Positions 482 to 29,307 of a DNA stretch of 32,000 nucleotides are shown here, in pieces. This stretch comes from Acaryochloris marina S15 (lineage in GTDB: Bacteria > Cyanobacteriota > Cyanobacteriia > Thermosynechococcales > Thermosynechococcaceae). The stretch lies in assembly GCF_018336915.1 (NCBI RefSeq), contig NZ_CP064923.1, forward strand, positions 3,960,001-3,992,000. Direction: 5' to 3'. The position numbers were made by a program, and so were the translations under genes. Every line of letters begins with the position of its first letter. The stretch's first letter is position 1. The notes beneath the pieces were generated by a model. The model saw only the letters and a program-made list of their open reading frames with translations. It was not told where the DNA came from and made no database searches.

Positions 482-749
482 TGTGCTGACATGATCCCAT
501 TGCACCTTAAATCTATTGCAGCTTATGAGTTTTTGAGATTTGCAGATGAGCCTCTTAGCGGCCCCTTTCCTGAGATTTTGCATCCAAGGTAGTGGCGATG
601 ACCGCACATCTTTTTCCCCGATTCACGTTCCTTCATTCAAACTATGAGGCAATGGATTTTGGGGAGAGTGCCGGAAAGCAGTTCATTACTAGATTATGCA
701 ACTTCTGCTTTTCTGGGCATTCTCAATAGTAAGGGCTATTACAGGGAAT

Positions 750-6700: not shown

Positions 6701-7724
6701 ACTGATGGGGGGAGAAATTCAGGTTGCTAGTCAACCGGGCAAAGGGAGTGAGTTTTCCTTTAGTTTGCTGCTCTCTCTCACTGGAGATAGGGGACGGCTT
6801 CAACCCCATCTCAGCCACCAGAACATTATGGGTTACCAAGGAAAACGGCAGCAGATCTTGGTCATTGACGATCTCCAGGAGAATCGGGAAGTCATCGTCA
6901 ATCTACTACAACCGCTGGGTTTCAATCTTTGTGAGGCCGAGCAGGGTCAGGACGGGTTAGACCATATACGCAAGCAGCAGACTGATCTGGTGATTACTGA
7001 CTTATATATGCCCATGATGGATGGTTTTGAATTTTTGAAACAGGTTCGTCATGATCCAGATCTGACACCAATAAAAGTCATTGCTTCATCTGCATCGGTT
7101 GACCCATCCAATCAGCAAATGGCTCTGGCTGTAGGGAGTAATGCTTTTTTAGTTAAACCTATTCAAGAGCAAGATTTACTAGAGGCGATTGCCGAGCAGC
7201 TGCAACTGGAGTGGGTGTACGAAACAACATTAGAAACTCAGCAAATCGAACCGCTGCCAACGGCATTACTGCTCCCCTCCTCCTCAATATTGGCATCTTT
7301 ACAAATGCTGGCCCAGCAAGGTTTGATCCAAGATCTACAACAGCAACTCAACCCGTTGCTTCACGTTAATGCTGCCTACGAACCGTTTGTTGAGCAGCTC
7401 TCATCCCTGGCTAAAGGGTCTAAGGTTGAGGAAATAGCAGCGCTATTGCAGCAATACCAAGAACAACAGTCTTCACCTCTATCAGATCTACCGAACAACG
7501 CACAGGCCCTAAAGACCTATCCATCTCCGGAAAATTTAGAGCGGCTGTTAGACATGGCAAGCAGAGGCAGTGTGTTTGAGATTATGGATGAATTATTAGT
7601 GATTCAGTCCACAGATCCCCAATGCCACTATTTTTGCCAAGAGCTCTTACGGTGGTCAGAGCAATTCGAAGTGGGTAAAATTCAAGTCTTTTTACAAGCA
7701 GCAGTGGATAAAGCCAAGGCTTAG
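750..7724 (+). CDS. Giant multi-domain dual kinase: Ser/Thr protein kinase, AAA_16-type P-loop NTPase, helical/TPR-like region, GAF, 2x PAS, HisKA, HATPase_c, receiver, duplicated helical tail.
   Basis: One 7-kb ORF. Motifs read directly:
- Ser/Thr kinase: [22 protein letters not shown]
- P-loop: GFSGIGKT (nt 1755-1778)
- H-box: SHELRTPLN (His codon 6123-6125)
- HATPase boxes: [20 protein letters not shown]
- Receiver: [14 protein letters not shown]...VKP
The track start at 696 adds a hydrophobic junk peptide. The ATG at 750 (MEHSS...) is preferred. Confidence 0.9.
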
Positions 7725-9890: not shown

Positions 9891-10772
9891 TCACTGCAGA
9901 AATGGATTGATCGAAATTGGTGTTTTTTGCAGCTTAGCCCCTGTAGGGGGGACAAAGCGAAAGGCATCGGCTGGGACCGAAGGGGGATTGGTGTAATGAA
10001 TCACTTTCTCTTGAATGTTGAAGTTTAAGGTTTGGTGGTCTTGACTGGCCATTTGCAAATACTTAATTTCAGACGTCAAGGCATCAATATAGGCTTGCAG
10101 CTGATATCCCTTGGCTTGATCCAAATAGGAGTAGGTGGTGTATTTAGCCCCATTTAGATGTTGGGTATCAGACTTGAGTCCAGCCTGATCCGGTGCCAAT
10201 TTAGTTTGCAAAATCTCCGCCAATTTATCTTCAGACACATTCACCAATAGAGCAATATTGTCTTTTCCGGCACTATTGCGGATGGTGGAAAAAAGTCTGG
10301 ATAACATGCCAGACAGAAAGTTGTCATTTGCATTTTGGAATTGTTGGTAACTGATCAGAGAGTAGACGTTGTTAACCAGATCATGAGTCCAGACCTGTTG
10401 GCCATCCGAAACCAGCAGATATTGTCTTCCTCCTTCGCCTGCCGGATCCATAAAAGTAATCTTGGTTCTGAATCGATTGGGTTCTTCTGAAATCGTTTGA
10501 ATTTGGGCAACGGAGACCAGATCCGCCCCTGGTGTTTTGGCCTTAAGGGTCAATTCTGATTTGAGCAAGTAGCGATCGTTGGCCAAGAACTGTCGCATTG
10601 CCCGAATGAGCAGGCCATAGTCAACCTTTTTCTCCGCTGAATGCACGAAGGGTTGGGCAACGGGCTGCAGACGTGGAGACTGAGACCAGGCCGGTTGAAC
10701 GAGCAATCCCACCATAAAAGCCGACAACAAACAGACATGGCGCTGATAGCCACAAAATTTCGTCATATTCAT
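9891..10772 (-). CDS. Exported hypothetical protein, possibly with a LolA-like/lipoprotein-sorting-like fold.
   Basis: N-terminal signal peptide (LLSAFMVGLLVQPAWSQ). The C-terminal ...PADAFRFVPPTGAKL... resembles the end of LolA-like domains. The track start at 10775 is a TTG, with an ATG at 10772. The product call is tentative. Confidence 0.5.
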   Translation of the reverse strand: MNMTKFCGYQRHVCLLSAFMVGLLVQPAWSQSPRLQPVAQPFVHSAEKKVDYGLLIRAMRQFLANDRYLLKSELTLKAKTPGADLVSVAQIQTISEEPNRFRTKITFMDPAGEGGRQYLLVSDGQQVWTHDLVNNVYSLISYQQFQNANDNFLSGMLSRLFSTIRNSAGKDNIALLVNVSEDKLAEILQTKLAPDQAGLKSDTQHLNGAKYTTYSYLDQAKGYQLQAYIDALTSEIKYLQMASQDHQTLNFNIQEKVIHYTNPPSVPADAFRFVPPTGAKLQKTPISINPFLQ

Positions 10773-10857
10773 CAACCACCTATGCCAGATATCGCCTGCC
10801 GTTCTAGCCTGGATTTTTGCCGTAGCCAGTCGGGCTTTGGCATAGGATGCCCCATTG

Positions 10858-11331
10858 CTACCCTGCTTTTTTCAGGGGTGGGCGATGATTTGTTTGAGTG
10901 CGAATCTGCTGACGAACATCGGAATAGGCATAGGCCCTGCCGTCACCCTGCTTCTGCATATGCTTAATCACAAATTCTTGATTATCGAGATAGGCCCCGA
11001 CGCCAAATTGTTCCGCCGCATTTTTGAAGGCATCAGCAATGGCCCGCTCAATCGGTGTGCCGTAGGTTTGCCTCTCTGGATAGGCTTTGTCGTTGCCCAC
11101 TCCTTCACGGGTTAAGCCTTCAAGGGTGAGCTGGCAGCGCACCACCACATATTCCCCCACAATCACCGGATCGCTATAGGTCACCGACCAGTCAGGGCAA
11201 ACCTCATTGAGGCGCTTCCGAATGCGCTGCCAAGGGATAAAGAACCATTTACCGCCCCCCGGAAGCACTCGATCTTGATGGTCGGCGGCTGGAAAGGGGG
11301 CTTTAAGTTGGTCGAGGCGTTCAGTCTTCAT
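10858..11331 (-). CDS. Rad52/Sak-like (DUF1071-type) single-strand annealing protein candidate.
   Basis: 157 aa. The pattern F.IPWQRIRKRLNEV.PDWS ... GVGND ... ERAIADAFKNAAEQFGVGAYL matches the Rad52/Sak core signature (beta-hairpin region followed by ..A..A.K.A...FG.G.YL). Recognised by eye only. Confidence 0.5.
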   Translation of the reverse strand: MKTERLDQLKAPFPAADHQDRVLPGGGKWFFIPWQRIRKRLNEVCPDWSVTYSDPVIVGEYVVVRCQLTLEGLTREGVGNDKAYPERQTYGTPIERAIADAFKNAAEQFGVGAYLDNQEFVIKHMQKQGDGRAYAYSDVRQQIRTQTNHRPPLKKAG

Positions 11332-11463
11332 GACTTTAATGGTTTAATAGTATATTTGTACCATATTATATCAGCATAAATAAAGAGACAATACACAAAT
11401 TACTGAAACCATTTATCAGCCTTTGGTCAACGATTCCTTAAGGTTTATTGCAGAATCCCCTGA

Positions 11464-12644: not shown

Positions 12645-13307
12645 TCAACCCAGGACAACCGAGCTGAGAAATACAGCACCCATACCGCTCAGAACAAACC
12701 CGGCAAATCGCAGATTCAACAGACCTTGGCTCTGATTCTTTTTCTGAAGGGCTCTGCCAATGGCCCAGGCAGCCAAACTAATTGCTAGCTGGATGGAGAC
12801 AAACCCTAGCAGATAGGAAATGGTAGGCGTCATCTCAGCGCCAACGATGGCTTCACCATAGGCATAGCCATGAAACATACCGGAAACGGCCCCCAACAGC
12901 GATATCAGCCAGACATTCGTTTGTAATCCTCGGGCTAAAATCAGGCCAAATGCCAGGACTGAAGCCGAAATAAAGGCTTCAGGAGCCGGTAAGTCTAGGG
13001 CCTGTAAATGGATGCCTGTTCCTGCTAGGGACCCCAACACAAACAAAATCGGCACCATCGCTCCTTTGCGCATCAGGGCTGCGACGAGTCCGGCGGCAAT
13101 CACAAAGGCCAGATGATCAATCCCAATCACGGGGTGTCCCATCCCAGACATAAACCCTTCAAAAGCGTTGGCAGGTAGACGCCCATCCAAAGGATGATGG
13201 GCTAGGGCAGGGGATGAACAGGTTAATAAAGTGATAATCCCTAAAGTAATGCCAAGTCCTAGCCGTCGGCTGGGCATAGTGCTGCGGGATAGGGTGGAAA
13301 TGGTCAT
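12645..13307 (-). CDS. hupE: HupE/UreJ-family Ni/Co transporter (here most likely cobalt uptake for the nitrile hydratase).
   Basis: Signal peptide ending ...SPALA|HHPLDG, the HupE signature GMGHPVIGIDHLAF, and multiple TM helices. The track start at 13343 is a TTG. The ATG at 13307 has GAGGA ~10 nt upstream. Confidence 0.85.
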   Translation of the reverse strand: MTISTLSRSTMPSRRLGLGITLGIITLLTCSSPALAHHPLDGRLPANAFEGFMSGMGHPVIGIDHLAFVIAAGLVAALMRKGAMVPILFVLGSLAGTGIHLQALDLPAPEAFISASVLAFGLILARGLQTNVWLISLLGAVSGMFHGYAYGEAIVGAEMTPTISYLLGFVSIQLAISLAAWAIGRALQKKNQSQGLLNLRFAGFVLSGMGAVFLSSVVLG

Positions 13308-13343
13308 CGATTGGCTTTCCTCAGGTAGATGATGCAAATTCAA

Positions 13344-13703
13344 TTAGGAACAGGGTTCACTTTTACAATCCAGCAGTTGGGTCATTTGAGCCTCCAGCTC
13401 ACCAGCAGCAATGACCCCTGACTCAACAGCCACTTTTTCTAGGGCGGTTAACCAACAGTGATAATAGTCCCATTCTGGGTCATCTAGGGAATGGGTGGTT
13501 TCCCACTCATTGATGGTTTCGATCAGGGTCTGACGAAAGGCTTCCCATTCAAAATGGCCTTGCTTTGATAGGGCAATAGCAACCCCAAAGGCCATTTTCT
13601 CCCAATCTCGATCAAAATGCAGGTGACCGTCTTGGCGTGGAGGCGATTCTTCCGGAGACCCCATCAAACTCGTCGCTGCGAAGTGCTCAAATTGAGTAAA
13701 CAT
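13344..13703 (-). CDS. Nitrile hydratase accessory protein (small beta-subunit homologue, NhlE/NhhG/P14K type).
   Basis: DWEKMAFGVAIALSKQG parallels the beta-subunit N-terminus [16 protein letters not shown] encoded 1 kb upstream. It lies immediately after nthA. The ATG at 13703 has GGGAGG 9 nt upstream. Alternative starts are 13712 and 13742. Confidence 0.75.
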   Translation of the reverse strand: MFTQFEHFAATSLMGSPEESPPRQDGHLHFDRDWEKMAFGVAIALSKQGHFEWEAFRQTLIETINEWETTHSLDDPEWDYYHCWLTALEKVAVESGVIAAGELEAQMTQLLDCKSEPCS

Positions 13704-13719
13704 GACCGTCATCCTCCCA

Positions 13720-14343
13720 CTAGACTTGCACGGTGGCAACACCCATCATTGCTTCTGGGGTCAGTAAATCAGCTAGTTGAGCTTCACTGAGGCCCTCAGT
13801 TCCCGCTGGACGCATGGGCAGCACCCACCAGCGAATTTGGGCACTGCTGTCCCAGACTCGCACTTCTACAGAATCGTCCAAGGTGACGCCGAACTCTTTG
13901 AGGACGACACGAGGTTCCCTCACCACCCGTGCCCGAAAGGTCGGATCTTTAAACCAGTAGGGAGGCAAACCGAGGGTGGGCCAGGGATAACAAGAACATA
14001 AGGTACAAACAATGACGTTATGTACTTCAGGGGTGTTCTCGACAATTCGCATATGCTCCCCTTCCGCTCCAGACATCCCTGCGGGAAAGTCCAGTTCTTG
14101 ACAGGCGGCATTACAGTCTGCCAAGAGCCGCTGCTTGAATTCCAGATCGACCCAGGCTTTGGCGACCAATTTGGCTCCGTTAAACGGTCCCATTTCCGTG
14201 TCAAAATAGCCCAGAATTTGATCGACTGTCTTGCCCGTAATAATCCCTTTTTCGATCAACAACGACTCCAGGGCTTTGACCTTAGCAGCACTGTAGGTTT
14301 CACGATCAGCGCCATATTTAAATCCAGGATAGTTACTCGGCAT
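13720..14343 (-). CDS. nthA: Nitrile hydratase alpha subunit, cobalt type.
   Basis: The metal-binding claw V-C-T-L-C-S-C is encoded at nt 13990-14007 (TGT ACC TTA TGT TCT TGT on the minus strand). Thr in the third position marks Co-type enzymes; Fe-type enzymes have Ser. Confidence 0.93.
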   Translation of the reverse strand: MPSNYPGFKYGADRETYSAAKVKALESLLIEKGIITGKTVDQILGYFDTEMGPFNGAKLVAKAWVDLEFKQRLLADCNAACQELDFPAGMSGAEGEHMRIVENTPEVHNVIVCTLCSCYPWPTLGLPPYWFKDPTFRARVVREPRVVLKEFGVTLDDSVEVRVWDSSAQIRWWVLPMRPAGTEGLSEAQLADLLTPEAMMGVATVQV

Positions 14344-14346
14344 AAT

Positions 14347-15093
14347 CTAGGCGGCGTCCAAATAAACTTCAAAAATGTCGTTGTAATAAACCGACTTCGG
14401 CTCTGTTAGGGATTCAGGCCAAATATCTTCGGGCTGGAACAGCAAGCTGTACACAGGCATGGGTGTACCAATCCCATCTTCCGTAGGGAAGAAGTAGGTG
14501 AAGGCTCCTTCGTAAACCAGAACCACAACCGCTTCTCTGTCTCGCAACTGCCCCGGCAAACGACTATGGGCACCGGGGTGAACGTTTTTGACTTTGACCC
14601 GATCTCCCACCTTAAATTTGGGAGGAGCTGGGGCAGGTCGCATCGGCGAGTCCCCTTCTCGCAAATACTTTTCTACTTGGGTGTCGATCCCAGCTTTGCC
14701 ACCCTTGGGTAGGGGAGCGGCTGCTTTGGCACTATCTTCTAAGAACTCTGCGGTGCGGGTATCTAGTTCTTCCTGGGTAATGTAGCCTTCTTCCACAAAG
14801 AAGCCAGAAATGCCCCCCAGCCATTTTTCGTAATACCGCAACCGAAAATACTCAAAGGGATGCATGGCTTCGGCCCCTTGGCGCAGGTGCCCCCAAGTCC
14901 AGAAGCTCTTGAATTGGGTGGGAACCTTGGCAATCTCATATTTCGGGATGGAGGTATTGAGATGATTGCTGAGGGCCATCATAGCGGTATGGATACCAAA
15001 GATGCGCTTTTCCCAGGGTTCAACAAATACCTGTTTTTCGACGTTAACGGGATCTAGTCCTTCTAGACCCCCAAGATTATGCTGTAGTTTCAT
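14347..15093 (-). CDS. nthB: Nitrile hydratase beta subunit.
   Basis: [12 protein letters not shown]...[10 protein letters not shown]-terminus and SH3-like C-terminus ([12 protein letters not shown]...PGHSRLP-like). Its ATG (15093-15091) overlaps the TGA (15092-15090) of the upstream GTPase gene. It lies 3 nt upstream of nthA. Confidence 0.9.
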
Positions 15094-16082
15094 GCGGTTA
15101 CCTCTGCCATCAATGGGCGGGAAGCCAAGCAAGTCTGAAAACCCTGACGCAGCTCTGCTTCCTCTAAGTTTCTGCCAATAAAAACCAGTTCATTGCGGCG
15201 GGTTTCACCGGGACGCCAGGGTTTACCGGGTCTGCCGTCCAAGGTCATATGCACCCCTTGAAAGACAAACCGACGATCGGCTTCATCCATATCCAAAATG
15301 CCTTTCATGCGGAACAGGTCTGGACCCCGAGCTTGGACCAGCTGGTAAAGCCACCGATTAAGCTTGACGCTGTCCACGGTCCCCGTCTCGGTAATGGCGA
15401 CGGAAGAAACGGTTTGATCATGTTCATGGGCATCTTCGTCTAAAAACTCTGGATCGATGCTGAGGGCATGGCTGAGGTTAAAGGCTTGGACTCCTAGGAG
15501 CTGGTTCAGATCAATATTGCAGTTGGTGGTGGGATGTAGGGTTGCGATCGCATTCATGCTGCGCACCCGTTGGGTCAGAGTGGTCAGCACTTCTGGCGGC
15601 ACCAAATCCTGCTTATTCAGCAAAATTACGTCAGCAAAGGCGATTTGCTCTTGGGCTTCATTACTCTCCCAGTGGTCCCAAATATGCTTGGCATCCACCA
15701 CCGTCACCACTGCATCCAGCTGAGTTTGCCGCAGCATCACTTCATCCATAAAAAAGGACTGAATCACGGGGGCCGGATCGGCAAGGCCCGTGGTTTCAAT
15801 CACCAAGTGGTCAAAGCGGTCTTGCCGCTGCATGAGGTTACCAATAATCCGAATTAAGTCTCCTCGAACCGTGCAGCAAATGCAGCCATTGTTCATTTCA
15901 AAGACTTCTTCATCGGCGTCGATCACTAGCTGATGGTCGATACCAACCTCACCAAATTCATTGACGATCACAGCGATGCGCTGGTTATGCTCTTCCGTCA
16001 GAATTCGATTGAGTAAGGTGGTCTTCCCGGCCCCTAAGTACCCTGTTAAAACAGTGACTGGAATCTTTTGGATCAATGCCAT
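15090..16082 (-). CDS. COG0523 (CobW/HypB/UreG-class) metallochaperone GTPase.
   Basis: Walker [13 protein letters not shown], the metal-binding GCICC motif, LNKQD (NKxD), and a CobW C-terminal domain. Confidence 0.9.
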
Positions 16083-16095
16083 AGCCTCTCCTGAA

Positions 16096-17031
16096 TTAAC
16101 TCAACACCGTCATGACTCGAAACCCAATGGTCCGGTTTAAGCCCTGTTGGTCATATCCCGAACGGCTGGCCGAGCGGAGTCTCTCGGGAGGGTCTAGCCA
16201 ACCACCTCCACGAATAGCTCGCACGGTTCCCTGAGCTAGGGCTTTATGGCGATAGTTTGGCTGCCAACAATCGGCACACCATTCCCAAACATTGCCATGC
16301 ATATCGTGTAACCCCAAGGCATTAGGGGCAAAGCTCCCGACCTCTTGGGTTTGTCGCCGATAGTTCCCCGTTGTCTCACCGGCATAGGAATAGGTACTCA
16401 CATAATCTGCCCATTCACTGGTGATCGTGGCTCCGGTGTTGAAGGGGGTTTGGGTTCCTGCTCGACAAGCCTGTTCCCACTGAGCTTCATTTGGCAATTG
16501 ATAGGTCCGTCCGGTTTTATGACTGAGGCGCGTACAAAATTCAACGGCCTCTAGCCAAGAGATGCTTTCTACGGGACGGAGCGACCCCTGAAAATGAGCA
16601 GGGAATGGATCTAGCTCTCGCTCTACGGTTGGCAACGCCGCGACTGCAGCCCACTGCACTTGGGTAATGGGATATTTACTAATAAAAAAGGCAGGGACGG
16701 TGACGGCATGTCGAGGCCGTTCTTGAGCCAACGCCAGGTTTTCAGAACGGGAGGACCCCATCCAGGATTTACCCGATGAAATGGCTACCATTTCTAGGCT
16801 ATGCCCGGATTTTAATTCTTCTAGAAAGTATTTATTTTTTAGCTTTTCAAGGCCAACTAACTGACCGTTTTTATTAAGACTTGGAAACTCATATTCAAAA
16901 TGTTGTATATCAGCTAAAGACAAAGAATTAGGGTTAAAAAAACTGACACTTGTTAGCTTGTCTTGAATTGCAACTGCAAGGGCAATACTCCCTAATCCGG
17001 CAGTTTGCATAAATCTACGACGTTTTATCAC
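16096..17031 (-). CDS. Tat-exported FGE-sulfatase (SUMF1/PvdO-like) domain protein.
   Basis: With the GTG start the N-terminus reads [20 protein letters not shown], a twin-arginine signal. The C-terminal ~230 aa carry FGE-family blocks ([22 protein letters not shown]). It ends 13 nt upstream of the GTPase gene, with AGGAGAGG in the gap. Confidence 0.8.
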
Positions 17032-20367: not shown

Positions 20368-20649
20368 TTAATGAGCTATTAGGTTAGAGTTCATTTGAAT
20401 AAACACCAAAGCCATTATGATTGCGAGCGCTACTAGCAACAGTGCTCTCCTTTCTTGAACAGACAGTTTTTCACAAGGGTCAATAGGTGGTGGAGGGACA
20501 GGAATCGTTCTGTGCCTCCCAGTTCGCGGAGGATCTGGGCGCACAAAAGGCTGTACTTCATGAGTAAGCCGATTGGTAGAGGATGCTGATGGTGTTCTCC
20601 CCCGATGGGGGGGCCGGATTCTGGAGGGACGACGGGCTGGACGACTCAT
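20368..20649 (-). CDS. Small Pro/Arg-rich protein with a single C-terminal TM helix (tail-anchored), translationally coupled to the haloperoxidase gene.
   Basis: Its ATG (20649-20647) overlaps the TGA (20648-20646) of the upstream gene. AAGGA lies ~12 nt upstream. The N-terminal 65 aa are highly basic and proline-rich, followed by ALLLVALAIIMALVFIQM. I recognise no family, and coding status is not proven. Confidence 0.45.
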   Translation of the reverse strand: MSRPARRPSRIRPPHRGRTPSASSTNRLTHEVQPFVRPDPPRTGRHRTIPVPPPPIDPCEKLSVQERRALLLVALAIIMALVFIQMNSNLIAH

Positions 20650-22565
20650 CGGCGACCAATCCTTCTAACATCGCCATCAAAGGTGGGTATTGATAAGACA
20701 AAAGGATCGGTTGAGTAGGTCAGGGCTTGTTCCTCTAGAATTCCAATCGCAATTTCTTCACCCATTCGCAAACTGTCGTAGTAGTCGGTGAAATAATGGA
20801 CCCCCGCCATATCTCTACCAATAGAGATATTGGCTGCAAGCTTATTCAGCTCACCTTCAAGAGTTAGAAAGTCATTTATGTTCCTATCTGGAACCAAATT
20901 GCCTACAGGAACACCTCCCCCTACACCAGGGCCAGGTAGATTAGGTGCACGAAAAACGATTGGATTATCTCCATTTGCCAAACGTTTAAATGAAATATTT
21001 GGACCTGATTCTGCAAGTACTGCACTCGTATCAAAGAATGCTTTGAGAATAGTCACACAAGCCCCAGCCACAGTTGCATGACCCGCTCCATAGGCGGGGT
21101 GCATTGGAGAACCTTCTGGGAATGCCATGGGTAAGAAATAACTACCACCATTCCCAGGCTGGGCGGCAGCTGCATTTAGAGCCTCAATTACATTTAATGT
21201 GCCACCACCATTGTTTTCCAATATGTTTCTATAACCTCCCATACTTGAACTCAAAGCTGGTGGGACTAGATTGGCAGGCACGCCATTGTTAGCTCGCAAT
21301 CGTTCTAGTTCAATACGAGCCGCTAACGCTTCAGGTCTCAGACGAATATGGTTATTGAATTTCTGGAAACGTACAGCCTTTAATGCGCGAGTAGCCACTT
21401 CAGTCACAAGGTTCAGAATATGAGGTCCACCATAGAGTGCAAAACCACCTGCATTACGCCGAGTTGCGGCATTACCTGCAGCTTGTCCTCCACCAGACAA
21501 ATGATCAAAACTAGGATCAAAGGGAGTTCCCATTTCTAGCAAAATGATGCAGGCATTAAGATAAGCTTCGTAAAGCGCATCGTAATGAACGTAAGTTGCT
21601 AAATCTCTAGGAGTTGAGATAAAGCGACGTGGTGGGCGATTCGGTTGAAGAACAGGATTCCCATTCGTGGGACCATAGGTTTCTCTTGGAGGACGAATAC
21701 CTCGCTGTGCCTGAACGTATTCAGGCATATTTTGCATATAATCTCTGCCTGGTTCTGCAATAGGCACTTTTTGATTGATTTGTAGAGCACCATAGGTAAT
21801 TAGCCCCTCATCAACACTGCCTCCGCCAACACCGTTAGGATCTCGATTAAGGTCAGTATTACCAATCAGTAGAAACTGCGACAAATAGGGACCGACTCCT
21901 ACTCCTGGAGATGAACCTCGAAATACAGTTTGTGCGTCCAGTTGGCCAGTACCACTGACTAGACGGGGGCGTCCAGTTTGGTTGCCAATGTAATCGAGAG
22001 CATTGAGGCGCACTATCGATTGATTAATAGAAGTATTAGCTCCTCCAGCTTCAAAATCATTGAAAGGTTGGTCACGGAGAATAGCTAATTCATACACCTC
22101 TGCCATTTCCAGAACCAGCTCTGGATTAGGATTGCCACAGCCATCTAATAAGGGTGGGGCTGGTGGCATGGTTACGGCTTGGGCATCAGGTCCTTCTAAG
22201 TCAAAAACAACCCCAGCCGTTGGGGCCTCCCATTGTCTAAAGTTATTGGGTAGAGGTGGTGGAGGTACAATCGGTTGTACTACCCCGGCAACAACCTCAT
22301 ATAAGGCACCATGCCGAACTGGCGTAGAAAAAGGATCGATAAAGCCGTCATCTATGGCTCGGCGGAATTCAACGAAATCATTGGGATCGGCTAGTAATCC
22401 GGTGTCGGGATGGTGGGGAAGTCCTTTTGTGAAGGACATAAAATATTGTGCGCCAGCATATCGTTGTTCATCGCCGTTGGCCTGATGGTCAGGATGATTT
22501 CGACTTCTAGCTAGCTCTGCGGCTTCAACTCGAACTGCATAGGAATCTTGTCGACGATCTGTCAT
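20646..22565 (-). CDS. Vanadium-dependent haloperoxidase (PAP2/acid-phosphatase-related).
   Basis: All three vanadate-site blocks are present: K402-x7-R410-P (KFNNHIRLRPE), PMHPAYGAGH496A, and R584DMAGVH590YFTD. AGGAAG lies ~8 nt upstream of the ATG. Confidence 0.9.
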   Translation of the reverse strand: MTDRRQDSYAVRVEAAELARSRNHPDHQANGDEQRYAGAQYFMSFTKGLPHHPDTGLLADPNDFVEFRRAIDDGFIDPFSTPVRHGALYEVVAGVVQPIVPPPPLPNNFRQWEAPTAGVVFDLEGPDAQAVTMPPAPPLLDGCGNPNPELVLEMAEVYELAILRDQPFNDFEAGGANTSINQSIVRLNALDYIGNQTGRPRLVSGTGQLDAQTVFRGSSPGVGVGPYLSQFLLIGNTDLNRDPNGVGGGSVDEGLITYGALQINQKVPIAEPGRDYMQNMPEYVQAQRGIRPPRETYGPTNGNPVLQPNRPPRRFISTPRDLATYVHYDALYEAYLNACIILLEMGTPFDPSFDHLSGGGQAAGNAATRRNAGGFALYGGPHILNLVTEVATRALKAVRFQKFNNHIRLRPEALAARIELERLRANNGVPANLVPPALSSSMGGYRNILENNGGGTLNVIEALNAAAAQPGNGGSYFLPMAFPEGSPMHPAYGAGHATVAGACVTILKAFFDTSAVLAESGPNISFKRLANGDNPIVFRAPNLPGPGVGGGVPVGNLVPDRNINDFLTLEGELNKLAANISIGRDMAGVHYFTDYYDSLRMGEEIAIGILEEQALTYSTDPFVLSIPTFDGDVRRIGRR

Positions 22566-23112
22566 AGAAATCTTCCTTTGGTATCTGTAGAGTAGTCAGT
22601 TATGTACTTCTGGATAAGCTGTCAGGTATTGACTGAAAAATTATGCGATTTTAGTAAAACATCACATTTGAGAAAGTGGTTTTAGAGTTTGCCCTTACTG
22701 ATAAGCACTAGGGAATAAATATCGTTAGCTCACCCTATTGATGTGATATTCAGCTACACGGTGGCTGTTAGGCCTAGCTGCTTCATCAACGAATAAGAGA
22801 GATAGAAGTATCTTTGAATCATTGGTTCTCTATAGTGTTGAGATTATGTGCGATAGGGCGTGAGAGATAGTGTTGAACTTTTTGTTAAGTTCCAATTTCT
22901 ATCATTCCTGTGAAAAACTGTTTAGGATTTAATTATGGTTAGGTAAAAGTCAAAAATTTATGTTTTTGTTGTATTTATTTCATGACCGTTTATTCATTGA
23001 TTTGTTTCTGCATCGTTAAACAAAAATAAGTACTGAAGGTGTTGACAAAAAATTGCTTGCATAATGACAGCTAGGCAGATTACGGCCTGAGCTATATTCT
23101 GGGAGCGAATTT

Positions 23113-26100
23113 GTGCCAATCGAAATAGGTCCGCTTGTTGGGGCGATCACAAAAATTGCCACACCTATTGCAGTCACTAAACTGCAACGGAATGAGGCCG
23201 TGATTAAACTGCTCAAGCAATTTGGTCTGGATCCTGAACACCCGCCTGCTGACTTTAGTGGTGTGTATGCCTATGCTCTAGTGGAATATTGTGTGGGCAA
23301 GCCTCCGCTGATGTTGGAGTTATTGCGGCAGGACGAAATTCGCCAGATTTTCAGGGAGTCATTTGAGCAAGATAATCCGAATATTCTGCTAGCTGAAGGG
23401 GAGCGTTATGTTCATGACTTTGCCTTAGGAGATGAGATTAGGGCTAAGGAAATTGACTACCCGCTTGAATTTGCACGTTTCAGTGCCATTTTTTTAGAAG
23501 TTGTCAATCGGACGAAAAAGCCTGCAGAGGTCAGACGCGATCAGAATATTGCCAATCTTCGTGATGGGTTAGATTTTGTCCAAGAACGACTTAATCGATT
23601 ACCAACAGTAGAAGCGATGCGAGCAGAGATGGCTCGCTTGGTTCCTCAAGCTGAACTGATGCTGCCAGGTGATAGCTCTGGGTGTAAAGAGAGTTGCCGA
23701 GCATATAGTCTGGCTCAGCAAATGCGCGGGTGGTTTGAGACGTTGGACTATGAGTTTGAGTCTTATGAGGCTTGGGAGGCAAACTACTTTGAGTGGATTA
23801 TTACTTATCGGGTGAGTCGGCGGCGGTTTAACCGTGTGCTGGTGAGAGGTGTGGATGGCGAGGGTGGCGTTGCAGATATTGAAGCTCTAGCGCAGTCGGT
23901 AAAAGGCCAACGTACTGATGAAGGATGGTTGGTGAGTAGTCGCCGATTGAGTCAGGCAGCAAAGGATTTGGTGGCCCAAACTGAGAATGAGTGTTTGGAG
24001 TGTTATACCTTTGATGAATTGTTGGATCAGGATGCAGATTTTAGTGGCTATTTGACTTGGCTGGAATCGGAGATTCTGAGCCGGAAGATTGATGAACAAT
24101 ATGTACCCCTAGCCTGCACGAAAGAAGAATTTAGTCCTCAAACTCAGCAACGAATTGCGTTAAGTCGATATGGCGAAGGAAATGGTTGGATTGATGGCTA
24201 TGTGGATGTGTGGTTGGATGACCCTGCCAAAGAACATATTTCTGTATTGGGAGAGTTTGGAACAGGAAAGACTTGGTTTACGCTGCACTATGCCTGGAAG
24301 GCTTTGCAAGACTATCGCGAAGCACAGCAACGAGGAACTGAGCGGCCTCGATTGCCTTTGGTGATTCCGCTGCGGGACTATGCCAAGGCTGTGAGTGTAG
24401 AGTCGCTGTTTTCGGAGTTTTTCTTTCGCAAGCATGAGATCCCGATTCCGGGATATTCGGCTTTTGAGCAGCTTAATCGAATGGGGAAGCTGCTGCTGAT
24501 CTTTGATGGCTTTGATGAGATGGCGGCGCGGGTGGATCGGCAGCAGATGATCAATAACTTTTGGGAGCTAGCCAAGGTCGTGGTGCCAGGGTCAAAGGCT
24601 ATTCTGACCTGTCGGACAGAACATTTCCCGGAAGCCAAGGAAGGGCGAGATTTACTGAATGCTGAGTTAAAGGCTTCGACCGCTGCCCTAACAGGTGAAC
24701 CGCCTCAATTTGAAGTGCTGGAGCTGGAAAAGTTTAATGAGGAGCAAATCCGGCAAGTGCTGTCCTTTCGAGCGGATGAGGAATCGGTGCAGCAAATTAT
24801 GGGCTATCCCCAGCTTTTAGATTTGGCCTGTCGCCCTGTGATGACGGAGTTGATTTTGGATGCGTTGCCGGAGATTACTGCTGGCAAACCAATCGACTTA
24901 GCTCGGGTGTATCTGTATGCTGTGCGGCGGAAGATGGAGCGGGATATTAAGGCAGAGCGGACCTTTACCTCCTTGGCGGATAAGCTCTATTTTCTGTGTG
25001 AGCTGTCTTGGGAAATGATCTTGTCGGATCAGATGCGACTGAACTATAAGCTTTTCCCAGAAAGGATTCGGAAACTATTTGGCCCGGTGGTACAGGAACA
25101 AACGGATCTGGACCATTGGCACTACGACATGATGGGGCAGTCGATGCTAATTCGGGATGCAGAGGGAAATTACAGCCCTGCCCATCGGTCACTGCTAGAG
25201 TTTTTTGTCGCCTACAAGTTGGTGGCCTTGTTGGGGGTTTTGGCTCCTGATTTTATTGAAATTGCTCAGGAGCAACCCCATGTCGATCAAGCGTTACTTC
25301 CACAGGAATATGGCTGGTGGGATTATTGCCAGCGACAAGTGGATGAGCAAGGTACTATCCAAAAGATTGCTCCTTTACTTCGGTTTAGATCTGGAGATAG
25401 GGAGAGTCTTCAGCCATTGCTAGTGCCTGCCCAATTGGCTAAGGCGATTTTAGATTTGGCTGTTCCAATGCTTGATTCAGCCCTAATGGTGGAACGGTTG
25501 CTTCCCCAAATTCAAGCTACTCGGGGACAAACTCAGGAGCAGGCAGGGTATTGGGGTGGTAACCTAACGCAGCTTTTGGTTGATAACAATCCTTGGGCGT
25601 TGGAAACCCATGATTTGAGCAACACCCATTTACAAGGGATTGATTTTGCAAATGTCAGCTTGCTACGAGTGAATTTAGCCAGAGCTAGCTTGGCAGAAGC
25701 CCATTTAAATAAAGTTCTAGGGACCATTTATACCATTGCTGTTAGCCCTGATGGTCAACTGTGGGCTATCGGAGAGGGCAACGGCAGACTGCAGATGTGG
25801 GATGCCAGTACCGGACGAGTGTTGTGGATTCGACAAGAACATTCTGCAGCAATTCAGTCGGTGGCCTTTAGCCCCGATGGCCAGCGGATTGTCAGTGGCA
25901 GTAAGGACCAAACCCTCCAACTCTGGGATGCCCAGGGCAACCCCATCGGCCAACCCTGGACAGGCCATACAGCTGGGGTCTTGTCGGTGGCCTTTAGCCC
26001 CGATGGCCAGCGGATTGTCAGTGGCAGTAATGACCAAACCCTCCGACTCTGGGATGCCCAGGGCAACCCCATCGGCCAACCCTGGACAGGCCATACAGCT

Positions 26101-27573
26101 GGGGTCTGGTCGGTGGCCTTTAGCCCCGATGGCCAGCGGATTGTCAGTGGCAGTAATGACCAAACCCTCCGACTCTGGGATGCCCAGGGCAACCCCATCG
26201 GCCAACCCTGGACAGGCCATACAGCTGGGGTCTTGTCGGTGGCCTTTAGCCCCGATGGCCAGCGGATTGTCAGTGGCAGTTATGACCAAACCCTCCGACT
26301 CTGGGATGCCCAGGGCAACCCCATCGGCCAACCCTGGACAGGCCATACAGATTGGGTCTGGTCGGTGGCCTTTAGCCCCGATGGCCAGCGGATTGTCAGT
26401 GGCAGTAATGACCAAACCCTCCGACTCTGGGATGCCCAGGGCAACCCCATCGGCGAACCCTGGACAGGCCATACAGCTGGAGTCTTATCGGTGGCCTTTA
26501 GCCCCGATGGCCAGCGGATTGTCAGTGGCAGTAATGACCAAACCCTCCGACTCTGGGATGCCCAGGGCAACCCCATCGGCCAACCCTGGACAGGCCATAC
26601 AGCTGGGGTCTGGTCGGTGGCCTTTAGCCCCGATGGCCAGCGGATTGTCAGTGGCAGTAATGACCAAACCCTCCGACTCTGGGATGCCCAGGGCAACCCC
26701 ATCGGCCAACCCTGGACAGGCCATACAGCTGGGGTCTTGTCGGTGGCCTTTAGCCCCGATGGCCAGCGGATTGTCAGTGGCAGTGATGACCAAACCCTCC
26801 GACTCTGGGATGCCCAGGGCAACCCCATCGGCCAACCCTGGACAGGCCATACAGATTGGGTCTGGTCGGTGGCCTTTAGCCCCGATGGCCAGCGGATTGT
26901 CAGTGGCAGTGATGACCAAACCCTCCGACTCTGGGATGCCCAGGGCAACCCCATCGGCCAACCCTGGACAGGCCATACAGCTGGGGTCTTGTCGGTGGCC
27001 TTTAGCCCCGATGGCCAGCGGATTGTCAGTGGCAGTGATGACCAAACCCTCCGACTCTGGGATGCCCAGGGCAACCCCATCGGCGGACCCTGGACAGGCC
27101 ATACAGCTCAGGTCTGGTCGGTGGCCTTTAGCCCCGATGGCCAGCGGATTGTCAGTGGCAGTGATGACCAAACCCTCCGGCTCTGGGATGCCCAGGGCAA
27201 CCCCATCGGCCAACCCTGGACAGGCCATACAGCTCAGGTCTGGTCGGTGGCCTTTAGCCCCGATGGCCAGCGGATTGTCAGTGGCAGTGATGACCAAACC
27301 CTCCGGCTCTGGGATGCCCAGGGCAACCCCATCGGCCAACCCTGGACAGGCCATACAGCTGGGGTCTTGTCGGTGGCCTTTAGCCCCGATGGCCAGCGGA
27401 TTGTCAGTGGCAGTGATGACCAAACCCTCCGACTCTGGGAGGTCGATACGGGCAAATGTTTAGCAGTCGTTCAAACAGGTTTATGTGGTGATATGAACTT
27501 TAGTGGCGCTCTGGGTTTAACAGAAGCCCAAAAGATGGCCTTGAAAGCGATGGGGGCTTACTGTAACGAATAG
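23113..27573 (+). CDS. NLR-like STAND NTPase: unknown helical N-terminus, restriction-endonuclease-like module, NACHT, short pentapeptide segment, 14 WD40 repeats.
   Basis: GTG start with GGGAG 7 nt upstream.
- Walker A: GEFGTGKT (nt 24250-24273)
- Walker B: LLLIFDGFDEM (nt ~24490-24522)
- Pentapeptide-like: LSNTHLQGIDFANVSLLRVNLARASLAEAHL
- Then 14 occurrences of the SPDGQ...LWD WD40 pattern
- Tail: ...GALGLTEAQKMALKAMGA. Confidence 0.93.
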   Translation: MPIEIGPLVGAITKIATPIAVTKLQRNEAVIKLLKQFGLDPEHPPADFSGVYAYALVEYCVGKPPLMLELLRQDEIRQIFRESFEQDNPNILLAEGERYVHDFALGDEIRAKEIDYPLEFARFSAIFLEVVNRTKKPAEVRRDQNIANLRDGLDFVQERLNRLPTVEAMRAEMARLVPQAELMLPGDSSGCKESCRAYSLAQQMRGWFETLDYEFESYEAWEANYFEWIITYRVSRRRFNRVLVRGVDGEGGVADIEALAQSVKGQRTDEGWLVSSRRLSQAAKDLVAQTENECLECYTFDELLDQDADFSGYLTWLESEILSRKIDEQYVPLACTKEEFSPQTQQRIALSRYGEGNGWIDGYVDVWLDDPAKEHISVLGEFGTGKTWFTLHYAWKALQDYREAQQRGTERPRLPLVIPLRDYAKAVSVESLFSEFFFRKHEIPIPGYSAFEQLNRMGKLLLIFDGFDEMAARVDRQQMINNFWELAKVVVPGSKAILTCRTEHFPEAKEGRDLLNAELKASTAALTGEPPQFEVLELEKFNEEQIRQVLSFRADEESVQQIMGYPQLLDLACRPVMTELILDALPEITAGKPIDLARVYLYAVRRKMERDIKAERTFTSLADKLYFLCELSWEMILSDQMRLNYKLFPERIRKLFGPVVQEQTDLDHWHYDMMGQSMLIRDAEGNYSPAHRSLLEFFVAYKLVALLGVLAPDFIEIAQEQPHVDQALLPQEYGWWDYCQRQVDEQGTIQKIAPLLRFRSGDRESLQPLLVPAQLAKAILDLAVPMLDSALMVERLLPQIQATRGQTQEQAGYWGGNLTQLLVDNNPWALETHDLSNTHLQGIDFANVSLLRVNLARASLAEAHLNKVLGTIYTIAVSPDGQLWAIGEGNGRLQMWDASTGRVLWIRQEHSAAIQSVAFSPDGQRIVSGSKDQTLQLWDAQGNPIGQPWTGHTAGVLSVAFSPDGQRIVSGSNDQTLRLWDAQGNPIGQPWTGHTAGVWSVAFSPDGQRIVSGSNDQTLRLWDAQGNPIGQPWTGHTAGVLSVAFSPDGQRIVSGSYDQTLRLWDAQGNPIGQPWTGHTDWVWSVAFSPDGQRIVSGSNDQTLRLWDAQGNPIGEPWTGHTAGVLSVAFSPDGQRIVSGSNDQTLRLWDAQGNPIGQPWTGHTAGVWSVAFSPDGQRIVSGSNDQTLRLWDAQGNPIGQPWTGHTAGVLSVAFSPDGQRIVSGSDDQTLRLWDAQGNPIGQPWTGHTDWVWSVAFSPDGQRIVSGSDDQTLRLWDAQGNPIGQPWTGHTAGVLSVAFSPDGQRIVSGSDDQTLRLWDAQGNPIGGPWTGHTAQVWSVAFSPDGQRIVSGSDDQTLRLWDAQGNPIGQPWTGHTAQVWSVAFSPDGQRIVSGSDDQTLRLWDAQGNPIGQPWTGHTAGVLSVAFSPDGQRIVSGSDDQTLRLWEVDTGKCLAVVQTGLCGDMNFSGALGLTEAQKMALKAMGAYCNE
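25861..27440 (+). repeat. In-frame tandem array of ~12.5 nearly identical 126-bp units (42-aa WD40 blades).
   Basis: GTGGCCTTTAGCCCCGATGGCCAGCGGATTGTCAGTGGCAGT recurs at 25861 + 126k for k = 0-12. Some units are 126/126 identical (25987 vs 26491; 26113 vs 26617). Confidence 0.97.
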
Positions 27574-27636: not shown

Positions 27637-28566
27637 CTAGCTCTCTACAATCTCAACGGCGGAAGTCAGTTCCTTAAGCTCATCTGCCGATAGATCAGAC
27701 ACGATCGCATAGTGAAACTCACCATCACTCCAAAACACCCCACCCGGTCCATCTTGAATCGCTAGGTAAAGCTTCTCTGGCGTTAACTGGGGCAGTTCTG
27801 GTTTCTGGGAACGGGCAATTTGGTAAAACGATACCTGGCCATGTTGCTCCGTATCGTACATGATACGGACTCCCTTGGCCTTACCGAAGGTACAAACACT
27901 TCCCCCCAATAATTTAGAACTCATTTGGGAAAGAATCGGCATTGCCGAGGGCATGGGAGCCTGCGCTCTCAGTAGGGTCGCCAGCTCCATTGGTTGATTG
28001 CTGGGAATATCCACCGCCTTCAGCCCTTTTTTCAAGGACTTACGATGATCCACCAAGATTTGTTCTACCCCATGCCAGTTCTGATTGACGAACGTATCGG
28101 TGGTGGTAATGACAACATTCCTGGGAGTCGCCTGGTGCGTCGTGGGTGGCAGGGTTGCCATCAGATTTTTCTGCTCAGCTAACTCCTGCTGAACCTGAGC
28201 CAATTGGTGCTGAAAATGAACCGTCTGCACACCCAGAGCCACCGTGGTGACTGCCGCAATACTTCCAAAGATTTTGGCCCAAGGGCGGGGGGCTTTTGGA
28301 CTCGCTGTTCGCTGGGCAGGCGTCATAGGTTTGGTCTGGACCGCCGACTGCATCATCTGGTCCCGAGCCGAGGGTTGGGGCTGGGCTTCAGCCAGAGCAA
28401 AGGGCAATAGATCCAAGGTTTCTTGTAGCCCTGCCACCTCTTCCCACAAGGTAGGATGCTCGACCGCTAACTGTTGAAACTCAGCCATCTCTTCCGAGTC
28501 AAGGTTGCCAATCACATAGCCAGCAGCGAGTTCTTCAAATCGGTTGTGAGGGATAGGATCGACCAT
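27637..28566 (-). CDS. Putative membrane-spanning anti-sigma factor.
   Basis: It starts 4 nt after the ECF sigma stop. The N-terminal helical region (FEELAAGYVIGNLDSEEMAEF...) resembles anti-sigma domains. There is a single TM (IFGSIAAVTTVALGV) and an extracytoplasmic C-terminal domain. Confidence 0.65.
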   Translation of the reverse strand: MVDPIPHNRFEELAAGYVIGNLDSEEMAEFQQLAVEHPTLWEEVAGLQETLDLLPFALAEAQPQPSARDQMMQSAVQTKPMTPAQRTASPKAPRPWAKIFGSIAAVTTVALGVQTVHFQHQLAQVQQELAEQKNLMATLPPTTHQATPRNVVITTTDTFVNQNWHGVEQILVDHRKSLKKGLKAVDIPSNQPMELATLLRAQAPMPSAMPILSQMSSKLLGGSVCTFGKAKGVRIMYDTEQHGQVSFYQIARSQKPELPQLTPEKLYLAIQDGPGGVFWSDGEFHYAIVSDLSADELKELTSAVEIVES

Positions 28567-28570
28567 CAGA

Positions 28571-29185
28571 TTAAAGCTCCATTTGCGCTTGTAGAGACTG
28601 GCGAAGTTGAATCAGTCCCTTCCTCGCCCAGGTTTTGACCGTGCCTAATGGCTTGTCCAATTGCTCAGCAATTTGAGACTGACTGTATCCCCCGAAATAG
28701 CTGAGTTCTAATACTTGTCGATACTCACTGGGCAGTTCTGTTAAAGCCTGCTGGAGGACTTGGCGCTTTTCCGACTGACTGGCATGGTCCAAGGGGGTGA
28801 GAGAAGGCTTGGGCGACAAACTTTCCTGCCACTGGGACAAAATGCGACGACGATTCCCCTTCATCCGCAGTCGATCGATGGCTCGCGACCGAGTGACTGT
28901 AGCCAAAAAGCTCGATAGGGAGCCTCGACTGGGATTAAACGTACAGCGTTCCCACAGGCCCAGAAAGATCTCTTGCATTAAGTCTTCCGCTTCTGGGGAA
29001 TTGCCCAAAATTTTATAGGCCAGGGTATAGACCAAACTGGAATAGTGATCGAACAGATAGCCTAGAGCATCTAACTCCTGGCGCTTAATTGCCGCAACAA
29101 GTTCAACGGCATCTGCATAGTTAGCAGGAGGAACAGGGCGATTCTCCTCGGAGGATGGGTTGGGTTGAGGAACTTTCAAAAGCAT
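28571..29185 (-). CDS. ECF-type sigma-70 family RNA polymerase sigma factor.
   Basis: Region 2 (DLMQEIFLGLWER) and region 4 HTH (YSQSQIAEQLDKPLGTVKTWARKGL). The track start at 29206 is a GTG; an ATG lies at 29185. Confidence 0.88.
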   Translation of the reverse strand: MLLKVPQPNPSSEENRPVPPANYADAVELVAAIKRQELDALGYLFDHYSSLVYTLAYKILGNSPEAEDLMQEIFLGLWERCTFNPSRGSLSSFLATVTRSRAIDRLRMKGNRRRILSQWQESLSPKPSLTPLDHASQSEKRQVLQQALTELPSEYRQVLELSYFGGYSQSQIAEQLDKPLGTVKTWARKGLIQLRQSLQAQMEL

Positions 29186-29307
29186 TTGCCCACAGCAGGG
29201 TTGCACTCATTCTATATACGAGTCAGGTTTGCGATCGGATGTCGGTATCGCCAATTATTTTTTGACCACATCCAATTAACTCACTGGCTCGTACTGAAAG
29301 TAAGCCC

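Follow-up and report, generated by a model that had tools for sequence, protein, structure and literature searches.

Current thinking traces the NLRs of animals and fungi back to NLR-like proteins of bacteria, and to our knowledge every bacterial member characterized so far carries a recognizable enzyme or pore-forming head. The fungal HET-E/NWD proteins possess near-identical WD40 repeats that vary at a few contact residues, and these proteins set off cell death when they encounter non-self alleles. Here, we describe an NLR-like NACHT gene from the cyanobacterium Acaryochloris marina S15, which lies in a 32,000-nucleotide stretch of contig NZ_CP064923.1 (positions 3,960,001 to 3,992,000; hereafter the window). 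Its product combines a helical domain and a nuclease fold, predicted to be catalytically dead, with a NACHT module and a WD40 array, and it is probably a receptor of a cyanobacterial conflict system.

The vocabulary for NNH, restriction endonuclease (REase), and pentapeptide modules was defined by Kibby et al., as was the NACHT signature D[GAS]hDE after Walker B. Their Table S1 contains an A. marina protein, WP_083776698.1, with the annotation 'NNH5+NA-iREase1+NACHT+Pentapeptide+BetaPropeller', an NACHT module of ~390 amino acids, and an assignment to NACHT clade 11. Part 1 of the three parts of their Table S2 holds bNACHT proteins of Klebsiella, E. coli, and Vibrio and includes no clade-11 and no cyanobacterial member. 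WRAP proteins and their disrupted relatives have already been described as well, and the variable sites of highly repetitive WD40 proteins have been published as predicted interaction hotspots.

Results

Domain architecture of the S15 NACHT protein

ORF calling in the window delineated a single open reading frame (ORF) for the gene, stop codon included (Table 1), and its product is identical in sequence to a RefSeq entry named 'NACHT domain-containing protein' of Acaryochloris marina. Domains were called by a Pfam profile search with curated cut-offs, which resolved the protein into NNH5, NA-iREase1, NACHT, pentapeptide, and WD40 segments. An earlier reading of the same DNA, made without database searches (the sequence-only reading), had proposed a tripartite NLR-like order of N-terminal output, NACHT switch, and repeat sensor, together with a pentapeptide stretch and 14 WD40 blades. 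The profile matches uphold this order, and all of these elements are present, the pentapeptide match being marginal.

The NACHT profile scored above its cut-off, and the two motifs quoted in the sequence-only reading are in place. Walker A (GxxxxGK[ST]) reads GEFGTGKT (aa 380–387, 24250–24273), and Walker B reads LLLIFDGFDEM (aa 460–470, 24490–24522) and contains D-G-F-D-E, in agreement with D[GAS]hDE. Both signatures are nearly invariant among 46 aligned family members. A CRTEHF sensor-like motif lies at 24601–24627, and a near-invariant PAHRSLLEFF segment (aa 689–698, 25177–25206) is found at a distance from the P-loop that is plausible for the winged-helix histidine, making its histidine (H691) a candidate equivalent of NLRC4 H443. 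The family alignment also revealed many invariant residues in the pre-NACHT segment, for example Asp-307 to Phe-310, Tyr-313, Trp-316, Tyr-330, Cys-335, and Trp-359. A sequence search with aa 1–860 against the PDB returned nothing at E ≤ 1.

On sequence grounds, the S15 gene is an NLR-like NACHT receptor of a catalogued kind, and this identity is secure. Its NACHT domain would fall in clade 11, an assignment made through the Table S1 entry of the same architecture and the 89% identical, syntenic copy in A. marina MBIC11017 rather than through a tree. The sequence-only reading had found nothing recognizable in residues 1–190 and had implied that the protein was novel. Neither claim survived: most of this region is Pfam NNH5, each of the two N-terminal modules is a curated family, RefSeq already contains the exact protein, the architecture stands in Table S1 of Kibby et al., and WRAP is published.

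The NNH5 and NA-iREase1 head

The profile search, which the sequence-only reading had proposed for aa 1–370, matched NNH5, NA-iREase1, and NACHT. NNH5 was matched over its full length at the extreme N-terminus, and its all-helical nature was borne out by structure prediction. We built an AlphaFold2 model of aa 1–370 and a separate model of aa 1–190; the latter is confidently all-helical (predicted template modeling score, pTM, 0.80; mean predicted local distance difference test, pLDDT, 77), with the helical region reaching ~aa 176. A Foldseek search of the NNH5 model against the PDB and the viral BFVD returned only noise (best E 0.66 and 1.5, probability <0.1). The idea that NNH5 is a death-fold, CC, HeLo, or MLKL four-helix bundle was dropped on that result. 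The structure and fold searches put forward in the sequence-only reading thus succeeded for aa 190–310, which adopt an REase fold in the model, and found no PDB or BFVD neighbor for NNH5.

The linker behind NNH5 was modeled poorly, with pLDDT <50 at aa 137–150 and 162–192 in the 370-residue model and poor values at aa 139–146 and 181–190 in the 190-residue model. Linker helices at ~aa 146–176 are of low confidence in the former, and aa 151–170 reach ~80 pLDDT in the latter. An extra DUF4062/TIR-like domain occupies the linker position in some relatives (P0123, P0126, P0132, and P0136).

NA-iREase1, the Pfam family 'NACHT-associated inactive restriction endonuclease 1', was also matched over its full length. 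Its landmarks are the helix QQMRGWFETLDY, the strand YFEWIITY with the invariant Glu-227, and the strands RVLVRGV and EGWLVSSRRLS. In the 370-residue model, aa 198–305 (pLDDT 75–92) follow the order α-β-β-β-α-β-α-β and contain the α-β-β-β-α-β core of REases. The closest PDB folds, all of the REase type, are MspJI and AspBHI (nuclease domains), EndoMS/NucS, AF1548, and RPB5 (N-terminal domain, non-catalytic); the E values of these matches are weak (2e-3 to 2e-2), and their probabilities are mostly ~1.0.

Glu-209 and Glu-227 are (nearly) invariant among the 46 aligned family members, and the strand expected to hold (E/Q)xK reads LVRG[VI] in all of them, with no lysine and no acidic residue. This common pattern indicates that the catalytic residues were lost in the ancestor of the family, as opposed to a defect peculiar to the S15 gene. 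Mrr_cat (PF04471) stayed below its threshold (17.9 bits versus 21) and aligned only over profile positions 59–101, its non-catalytic C-terminal part; with the catalytic lysine missing too, the module does not belong to the active Mrr-type PD-(D/E)xK enzymes. When the family profile was set against the active bNACHT25 REase, the match covered only 21 columns and was not significant, so the manual mapping of Glu-227 onto bNACHT25 Asp-48 is tentative. Judged by its residues and its model, NA-iREase1 is a restriction-endonuclease fold that is predicted to be catalytically dead. The degenerate Mrr-type module suspected earlier was therefore correctly sensed: it is NA-iREase1, with a REase-like core and PDB neighbors, and the missing triad and the VRGV at the lysine strand, which the sequence-only reading had pointed out, are kept family-wide.

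An exhaustive search with aa 1–370 yielded 568 clusters at 50% identity. Many of these matches cover only aa ~196–370, that is, NA-iREase1 and the pre-NACHT segment, without NNH5. On this chassis, NNH5 is replaced by Peptidase_C14 (caspase), SIR2_2, Metallophos, Trypsin_2, DUF4062/TIR-like, SMEK_N, EAD4, or HTH heads. Because the heads interchange, the chassis looks like a typical effector-swapping conflict system in which NNH5 takes the effector/adaptor slot. Elsewhere, NNH5 stands ahead of NB-ARC, AAA_35, and further NACHT modules and, separated by a phosphoesterase, ahead of nSTAND5, and one protein, P0209, has the architecture EAD1-CHAT-EAD10-NNH5-Macro, in which no NTPase was detected. 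This distribution fits the 'adaptor' class of Kibby et al. and Kaur et al. (effector-associated adaptor domains).

The WD40 sensor array

Thirteen WD40 profile stretches and one degenerate first blade add up to 14 blades, enough for two 7-bladed propellers. Tandem Repeats Finder described the array as 12.6 copies of a 126-bp period with 97% matches and zero indels (25857–27440). Blades 3–13 are 94–100% identical at the DNA level and differ in 10 nucleotide columns, seven of them non-synonymous and three synonymous, with amino acid variation limited to blade positions 4, 5, 7, 23, and 39. The variable positions use few states in S15 (AGVL, AGVW, DWVW, and AQVW). Averaged over 84 orthologues, the entropy of within-protein variability peaks at positions 4, 5, 7, and 23.

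The uniformity of the arrays was scored by lag-42 autocorrelation, as motif-anchored counting failed on diverged orthologues. By this measure, the S15 array is the most uniform of 95 full-length orthologues (lag-42 identity 0.91 versus 0.19–0.84). Among nine members compared, blade identity is 0.71–0.94 within a protein and 0.43–0.57 between distant orthologues; because blades are more alike within than between proteins, the arrays appear to have been homogenized repeatedly and independently. The literature defines WRAP or highly repetitive WD40 proteins by a median blade-to-blade identity >60%, WD40 repeats, and differences at few positions, and the S15 array belongs to this class. In the PDB, it is matched best by the WRAP propeller of Npun_R6612 from Nostoc punctiforme (2YMU, E = 8e-183).

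In the order of the blades (25963..27474), blades 3–6 (AGVL, AGVW, AGVL, and DWVW) recur as blades 7–10, and blades 4 and 8, as well as blades 12 and 13, are 100% identical in DNA. This suggests that multi-blade segments (~504 bp) were duplicated by unequal recombination.

The last blade is followed by a conserved tail with the family consensus MNITGVxGLTEAEKxTLKALGAVE, for which no significant Pfam match was found.

Distribution and conservation

A search with aa 1–860 retrieved 1796 proteins at E ≤ 1e-5. The best 120 of these are 61–93% identical over nearly the whole query, most are 1470–1503 aa long, and they are cyanobacterial wherever the source names the organism. When one genome per species was scanned, relatives turned up in the genomes of at least 448 cyanobacterial species (448 stretches). 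Locus comparisons were made on the best 80 of these stretches, which manual grouping placed in ~38 genus-level groups. These loci are all cyanobacterial where a taxon is named, two being labeled only 'uncultured bacterium', and the gene is nearly always 1470–1530 aa long. In Allocoleopsis franciscana PCC 7113, the protein (P0012) has 965 aa on a 7.47-Mb contig, and most of the propeller is absent; this array may be naturally truncated or disrupted rather than cut by a contig break.

Within the genus, the window shows synteny with A. marina MBIC11017, in which each of the ten flanking proteins is 70–96% identical and the NACHT gene is 89% identical. The orthologue of this type strain (locus L002, NC_009925.1, ~1.183 Mb) is split in its NNH5-coding part by an insertion sequence (IS) element, whose 369-aa transposase ORF with DDE_3 and HTH_23 domains lies at 10228..11337 (−) of L002, leaving a 1187-aa remnant ORF. 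MBIC10699 has the same 5′-truncated form, and CCMEE 5410 retains only fragments of 508–529 aa. Judged by species, length, and domain coordinates, WP_083776698.1 would be the same record as P0002 or UPI000A04E2FD. In Acaryochloris sp. IP29b, the upstream region (locus L001, 2850..3415, compared with window positions 22566..23130) is related only over the ~75 bp that directly precede the start codon, and the contig stops inside the WD40 array. These split and truncated copies and differing upstream contexts indicate that the NACHT gene is dispensable and reshuffled within the genus.

Genomic neighborhood

None of the ten window neighbors recurs beside orthologues outside A. marina in the 80 loci. 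The commonest Pfam families among the 130 nearest ORFs are PIN (10), DUF433 (7), XisI (4), and Uma2 (4), which are toxin-antitoxin and variable-region genes and offer no dedicated partner. PADLOC matches among the same ORFs are sporadic (mad3, five; mad8, four; Type I restriction-modification in one or two loci).

In loci L003–L080, DUF433-like genes lie ≤6 kb from the gene in 10 genera, PIN genes in 7, and AbrB-like genes in 4, and XisI-like genes are also found; their position is not fixed. A conserved operon partner was considered and rejected, as the clusters that cross genera are toxin-antitoxin-like (DUF433, PIN, and AbrB), XisI, or Microcoleaceae-specific synteny.

In S15, the gene stands alone, as the sequence-only reading had noted. 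A 547-bp intergenic gap separates it from a divergent 639-aa ORF upstream, the GC content at 22001–23000 is 0.42 compared with 0.45–0.62 across most of the window, and a convergent gene begins 63 bp downstream. The GTG start is credible because the NNH5 match begins at residue 6, because orthologues share the same few first residues, and because the GGGAG Shine-Dalgarno sequence 8 nt upstream is kept in three Acaryochloris genomes. The leader is common to these three genomes, IP29b among them, and its GCATAAT element may serve as a promoter. A scan for consensus promoters and terminators returned no more sites than shuffled sequences did, and an Rfam scan of the whole window found zero RNA families.

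The divergent upstream ORFs (20646..22565 (−), 639 aa, and 20368..20649 (−), 93 aa) have no Pfam match, and among the 80 loci their counterparts occur only in MBIC11017 (78–79% identity). Downstream, a convergent pair (27637..29206 (−)) comprises a 309-aa ORF without a Pfam match directly after a 211-aa extracytoplasmic function (ECF)-type σ70 factor; the two may be an anti-σ/σ pair. Farther away, a 2342-aa signaling ORF (696..7724 (+)) carries a Ser/Thr kinase, an AAA_16 ATPase, GAF, PAS, HisKA, HATPase_c, and receiver domains. A cluster at 12645..17031 (−) encodes HupE/UreJ, a nitrile hydratase β subunit, a CobW-family GTPase, and a stand-alone FGE-sulfatase-domain protein (311 aa), and it appears unrelated to the NACHT gene.

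Table 1. Features of the S15 NACHT gene, with positions counted from the first nucleotide of the window
Feature	Residues (aa)	Position in window	Strand	Remarks
Whole coding sequence	1486	23113..27573	+	GTG start; identical to WP_212662416.1
Conserved leader 5′ of the start codon		23059..23112	+	−10-like GCATAAT 23059–23065; GGGAG Shine-Dalgarno 23101–23105
NNH5 (NACHT N-terminal helical domain 5, PF22736)	6–137	23128..23523	+	E=4e-47; profile positions 3–134 of 134
Linker	138–199	23524..23709	+	Poorly confident in models
NA-iREase1 (PF22722)	200–305	23710..24027	+	E=4e-40; profile positions 1–106 of 106
Pre-NACHT segment, highly conserved	306–375	24028..24237	+	Always with NA-iREase1
NACHT nucleotide-binding domain (PF05729)	376–550	24238..24762	+	32.3 bits, cut-off 26.7; E=1e-7
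Helical and winged-helix part of NACHT module, and spacer	551–833	24763..25611	+	Family alignment; Table S1 module span
Pentapeptide-repeat stretch (PF00805)	834–865	25612..25707	+	20.6 bits, cut-off 20.2, borderline; directly before the propellers
14 WD40 blades of 42 aa	867–1455	25711..27477	+	WD40 profile and blade alignment
Conserved C-terminal tail MNFSGALGLTEAQKMALKAMGAYCNE		27493..27570	+	Family alignment

Discussion

We consider it probable that the S15 protein is a clade-11 NACHT receptor of a cyanobacterial conflict system that serves either immunity or regulated cell death, and that its output is non-enzymatic and of the adaptor type. This reading draws on the exchange of heads on the chassis, the adaptor-like distribution of NNH5, the missing catalytic residues of NA-iREase1, blade variation focused on sites that published work equates with interaction hotspots, and the turnover of the gene among sister strains. 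Reasoning from the architecture and from other STAND proteins, we propose a mechanism of three steps. A protein ligand, either from a phage or a perturbed or non-self component of the cell, would bind the variable face of the propeller. Binding would lift autoinhibition, and the NACHT module would exchange nucleotide and oligomerize. The clustered NNH5/iREase heads would then act as a non-enzymatic adaptor that recruits or activates separate effectors, possibly via NNH5-NNH5 contacts, and would cut no DNA themselves. A more specific idea, which we put forward tentatively and regard as doubtful, is that NNH5 is a so far uncharacterized homotypic adaptor through which a receptor with a self-renewing, hypervariable WD40 sensor recruits trans-acting, NNH5-tagged effectors of the CHAT/Macro type, with cell death or dormancy as the outcome, and that it links the unrelated NACHT, NB-ARC, nSTAND5, and AAA_35 families to one effector pool. 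If this is true, NNH5, which lacks a solved structural relative, would play the part that death-fold or EAD adaptors play elsewhere.

Several observations weigh against a conflict receptor with an adaptor head. The PADLOC scan of the protein matched no NLR, Avs, or bNACHT model; its matches were HEAT-ARM_XIII on the WD40 part and weak generic P-loop models, and the NCBIfam match to EruA (16 bits versus a cut-off of 1000) gave no system-level assignment. The neighborhood census that the sequence-only reading had asked for, with enrichment near defence genes in mind, was partly unfavorable: no defence gene recurs beside the orthologues among the 130 nearest ORFs from 37 genera, a count for which no background rate was computed, and the census returned only the sporadic matches and the toxin-antitoxin genes. 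Elsewhere in the window, the genes are of an ordinary chromosomal kind (LigA, nitrile hydratase, and CobW, for example), and our literature search found no experimental paper on the S15-type NACHT family. It is the co-occurrence of domains that suggests an adaptor role for NNH5, and a single NTPase-less example was inspected. Finally, the N-terminal 860 aa are 61–66% identical across orders, and 14 blades are near-universal, a pattern that resembles a conserved cellular function more than an arms-race gene; at the level of sequence, this conservation is strong for a putative immune receptor.

The same conservation enters into two other explanations. The protein might be an allorecognition, kin-discrimination, or developmental receptor, analogous to fungal HET-E/NWD and not antiviral. 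This would account for an NACHT domain joined to highly repetitive WD40 blades that evolve in concert and differ at few hypervariable positions, for the strong conservation of what appears to be one orthologue across at least 448 species of cyanobacteria, many of which are filamentous or form mats, and for a location apparently outside recognizable defence islands; Kibby et al. also note that NACHT-rich genomes tend to be those of multicellular bacteria. We nevertheless think it unlikely, as the NACHT domain would fall in clade 11 and that of HET-E/D falls in clade 18, no polymorphic partner locus was identified, and the few residue states of the blades carry little allelic information in one genome. 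Moreover, Acaryochloris is unicellular. Alternatively, the gene could encode a housekeeping STAND regulator or scaffold, comparable with MalT or AfsR, that plays no part in conflict and whose WD40 homogenization is a neutral by-product of tandem-repeat recombination. Its sequence and length are conserved across cyanobacterial orders, its chromosomal context is ordinary, and no PADLOC system matches it. Yet the gene is dispensable, being IS-split or truncated in sister strains, and its neighborhood varies even within the genus. The same chassis also bears caspase, SIR2, trypsin-like, and EAD heads, the Pfam search found no DNA-binding helix-turn-helix or other regulator output domain in the S15 protein, and the variation is centered on four blade positions and is mostly non-synonymous, contrary to what neutral homogenization predicts. 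Given these points, a purely housekeeping role appears quite improbable.

Two further explanations concern single parts of the protein. The REase-like module could still work as a nuclease, or it could bind DNA in a sequence- or structure-specific manner; the protein would then exert its effect on DNA directly, as bNACHT25 or Avs proteins with Mrr/Cap4-type heads do. The well-modeled fold, the (nearly) invariant Glu-209 and Glu-227, the latter tentatively placed by manual alignment at the strand position of bNACHT25 Asp-48, and the conserved Arg-241, Arg-245, Arg-277, and Arg-278, which could bind phosphate, are all compatible with this idea. Still, we give it little credence. The third strand lacks the lysine and the second acidic residue in 46 of 46 members, the Mrr_cat match is below threshold and confined to the non-catalytic C-terminal part of that profile, the Pfam curators named the family inactive, and the comparison with the active bNACHT25 REase was not significant; in relatives, genuine enzymes precede NA-iREase1, suggesting that the module is not the effector. 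As for the propeller, repeats that are 94–100% identical over 1.6 kb are hard to assemble, and in many database homologues the contig breaks off within the array (L001 and P0001 are examples). The uniformity could then be an artefact of collapsed or mis-joined 126-bp repeats, and the true blade number or sequence would differ. We regard this as very improbable: the reading frame is uninterrupted over exactly 14 blades, which is the near-universal number of the family, the repeats contain zero indels, an identical protein is found on a 5.88-Mb contig, and the variants are ordered among the blades instead of forming a collapsed consensus.

The gene, its domains, and the behavior of its repeats are already covered by existing catalogues, and this is a known kind of gene. 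Our contribution is an intact reference copy together with comparative observations and not a new kind of system. The S15-type family, whose head consists of a nuclease fold predicted to be dead and a helical domain, nonetheless ranks with the most widespread and best-conserved cyanobacterial NACHT proteins. Its signaling route would show how an enzyme-less bacterial NLR passes its signal on, and the target of the re-homogenized WD40 sensor is the second question that the family addresses.

The closest described counterpart is the clade-11 entry WP_083776698.1, whose annotated architecture is the same as that of the S15 protein; the MBIC11017 and MBIC10699 copies are 5′-truncated, whereas S15 has the intact 1486-aa gene. 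Npun_R6612 (2YMU) resembles S15 in its 14 near-identical 42-aa blades, which make up a C-terminal pair of 7-bladed propellers on a STAND NTPase of cyanobacteria, in the few and mostly non-synonymous differences between them, and in the disrupted copies of its relatives. It differs in its shorter N-terminal part, with blades starting at ~residue 670 instead of 867, and a TIR-STAND partner is reportedly transcribed along with it, whereas the S15 gene stands alone with its NNH5 and iREase head.

No PADLOC model places the S15 protein among the Avs/AVAST proteins or in another modeled system. bNACHT25 and other REase-headed NACHT/Avs proteins share with it an REase fold directly 5′ of a STAND NTPase and the NLR-like logic. 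bNACHT25 is a clade-6 protein with an active Mrr-like nuclease, in which D48A abolishes toxicity, and a short helical C-terminal NCH1; the S15 protein, putatively of clade 11, has lost the catalytic lysine and the second acidic residue and has an additional NNH5 and a WD40 sensor. Fungal HET-E, HET-D, and NWD proteins likewise join NACHT to highly repetitive WD40 blades that evolve in concert and have hypervariable contact positions; unlike the S15 protein, they carry a clade-18 NACHT, HET and other N-terminal domains, and a variable number of repeats in place of the fixed 14. Apaf-1-like bacterial STAND proteins have a C-terminal double WD40 propeller as well, and Apaf-1 chains are among the PDB matches of the S15 repeats. 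The nucleotide-binding module of Apaf-1 and of its orthologues in bacteria is NB-ARC (AP-ATPase), in contrast to the NACHT with DGFDE of S15, and the caspase-headed relatives that occur on the NA-iREase1-NACHT chassis of S15 recall these Apaf-1-like proteins.

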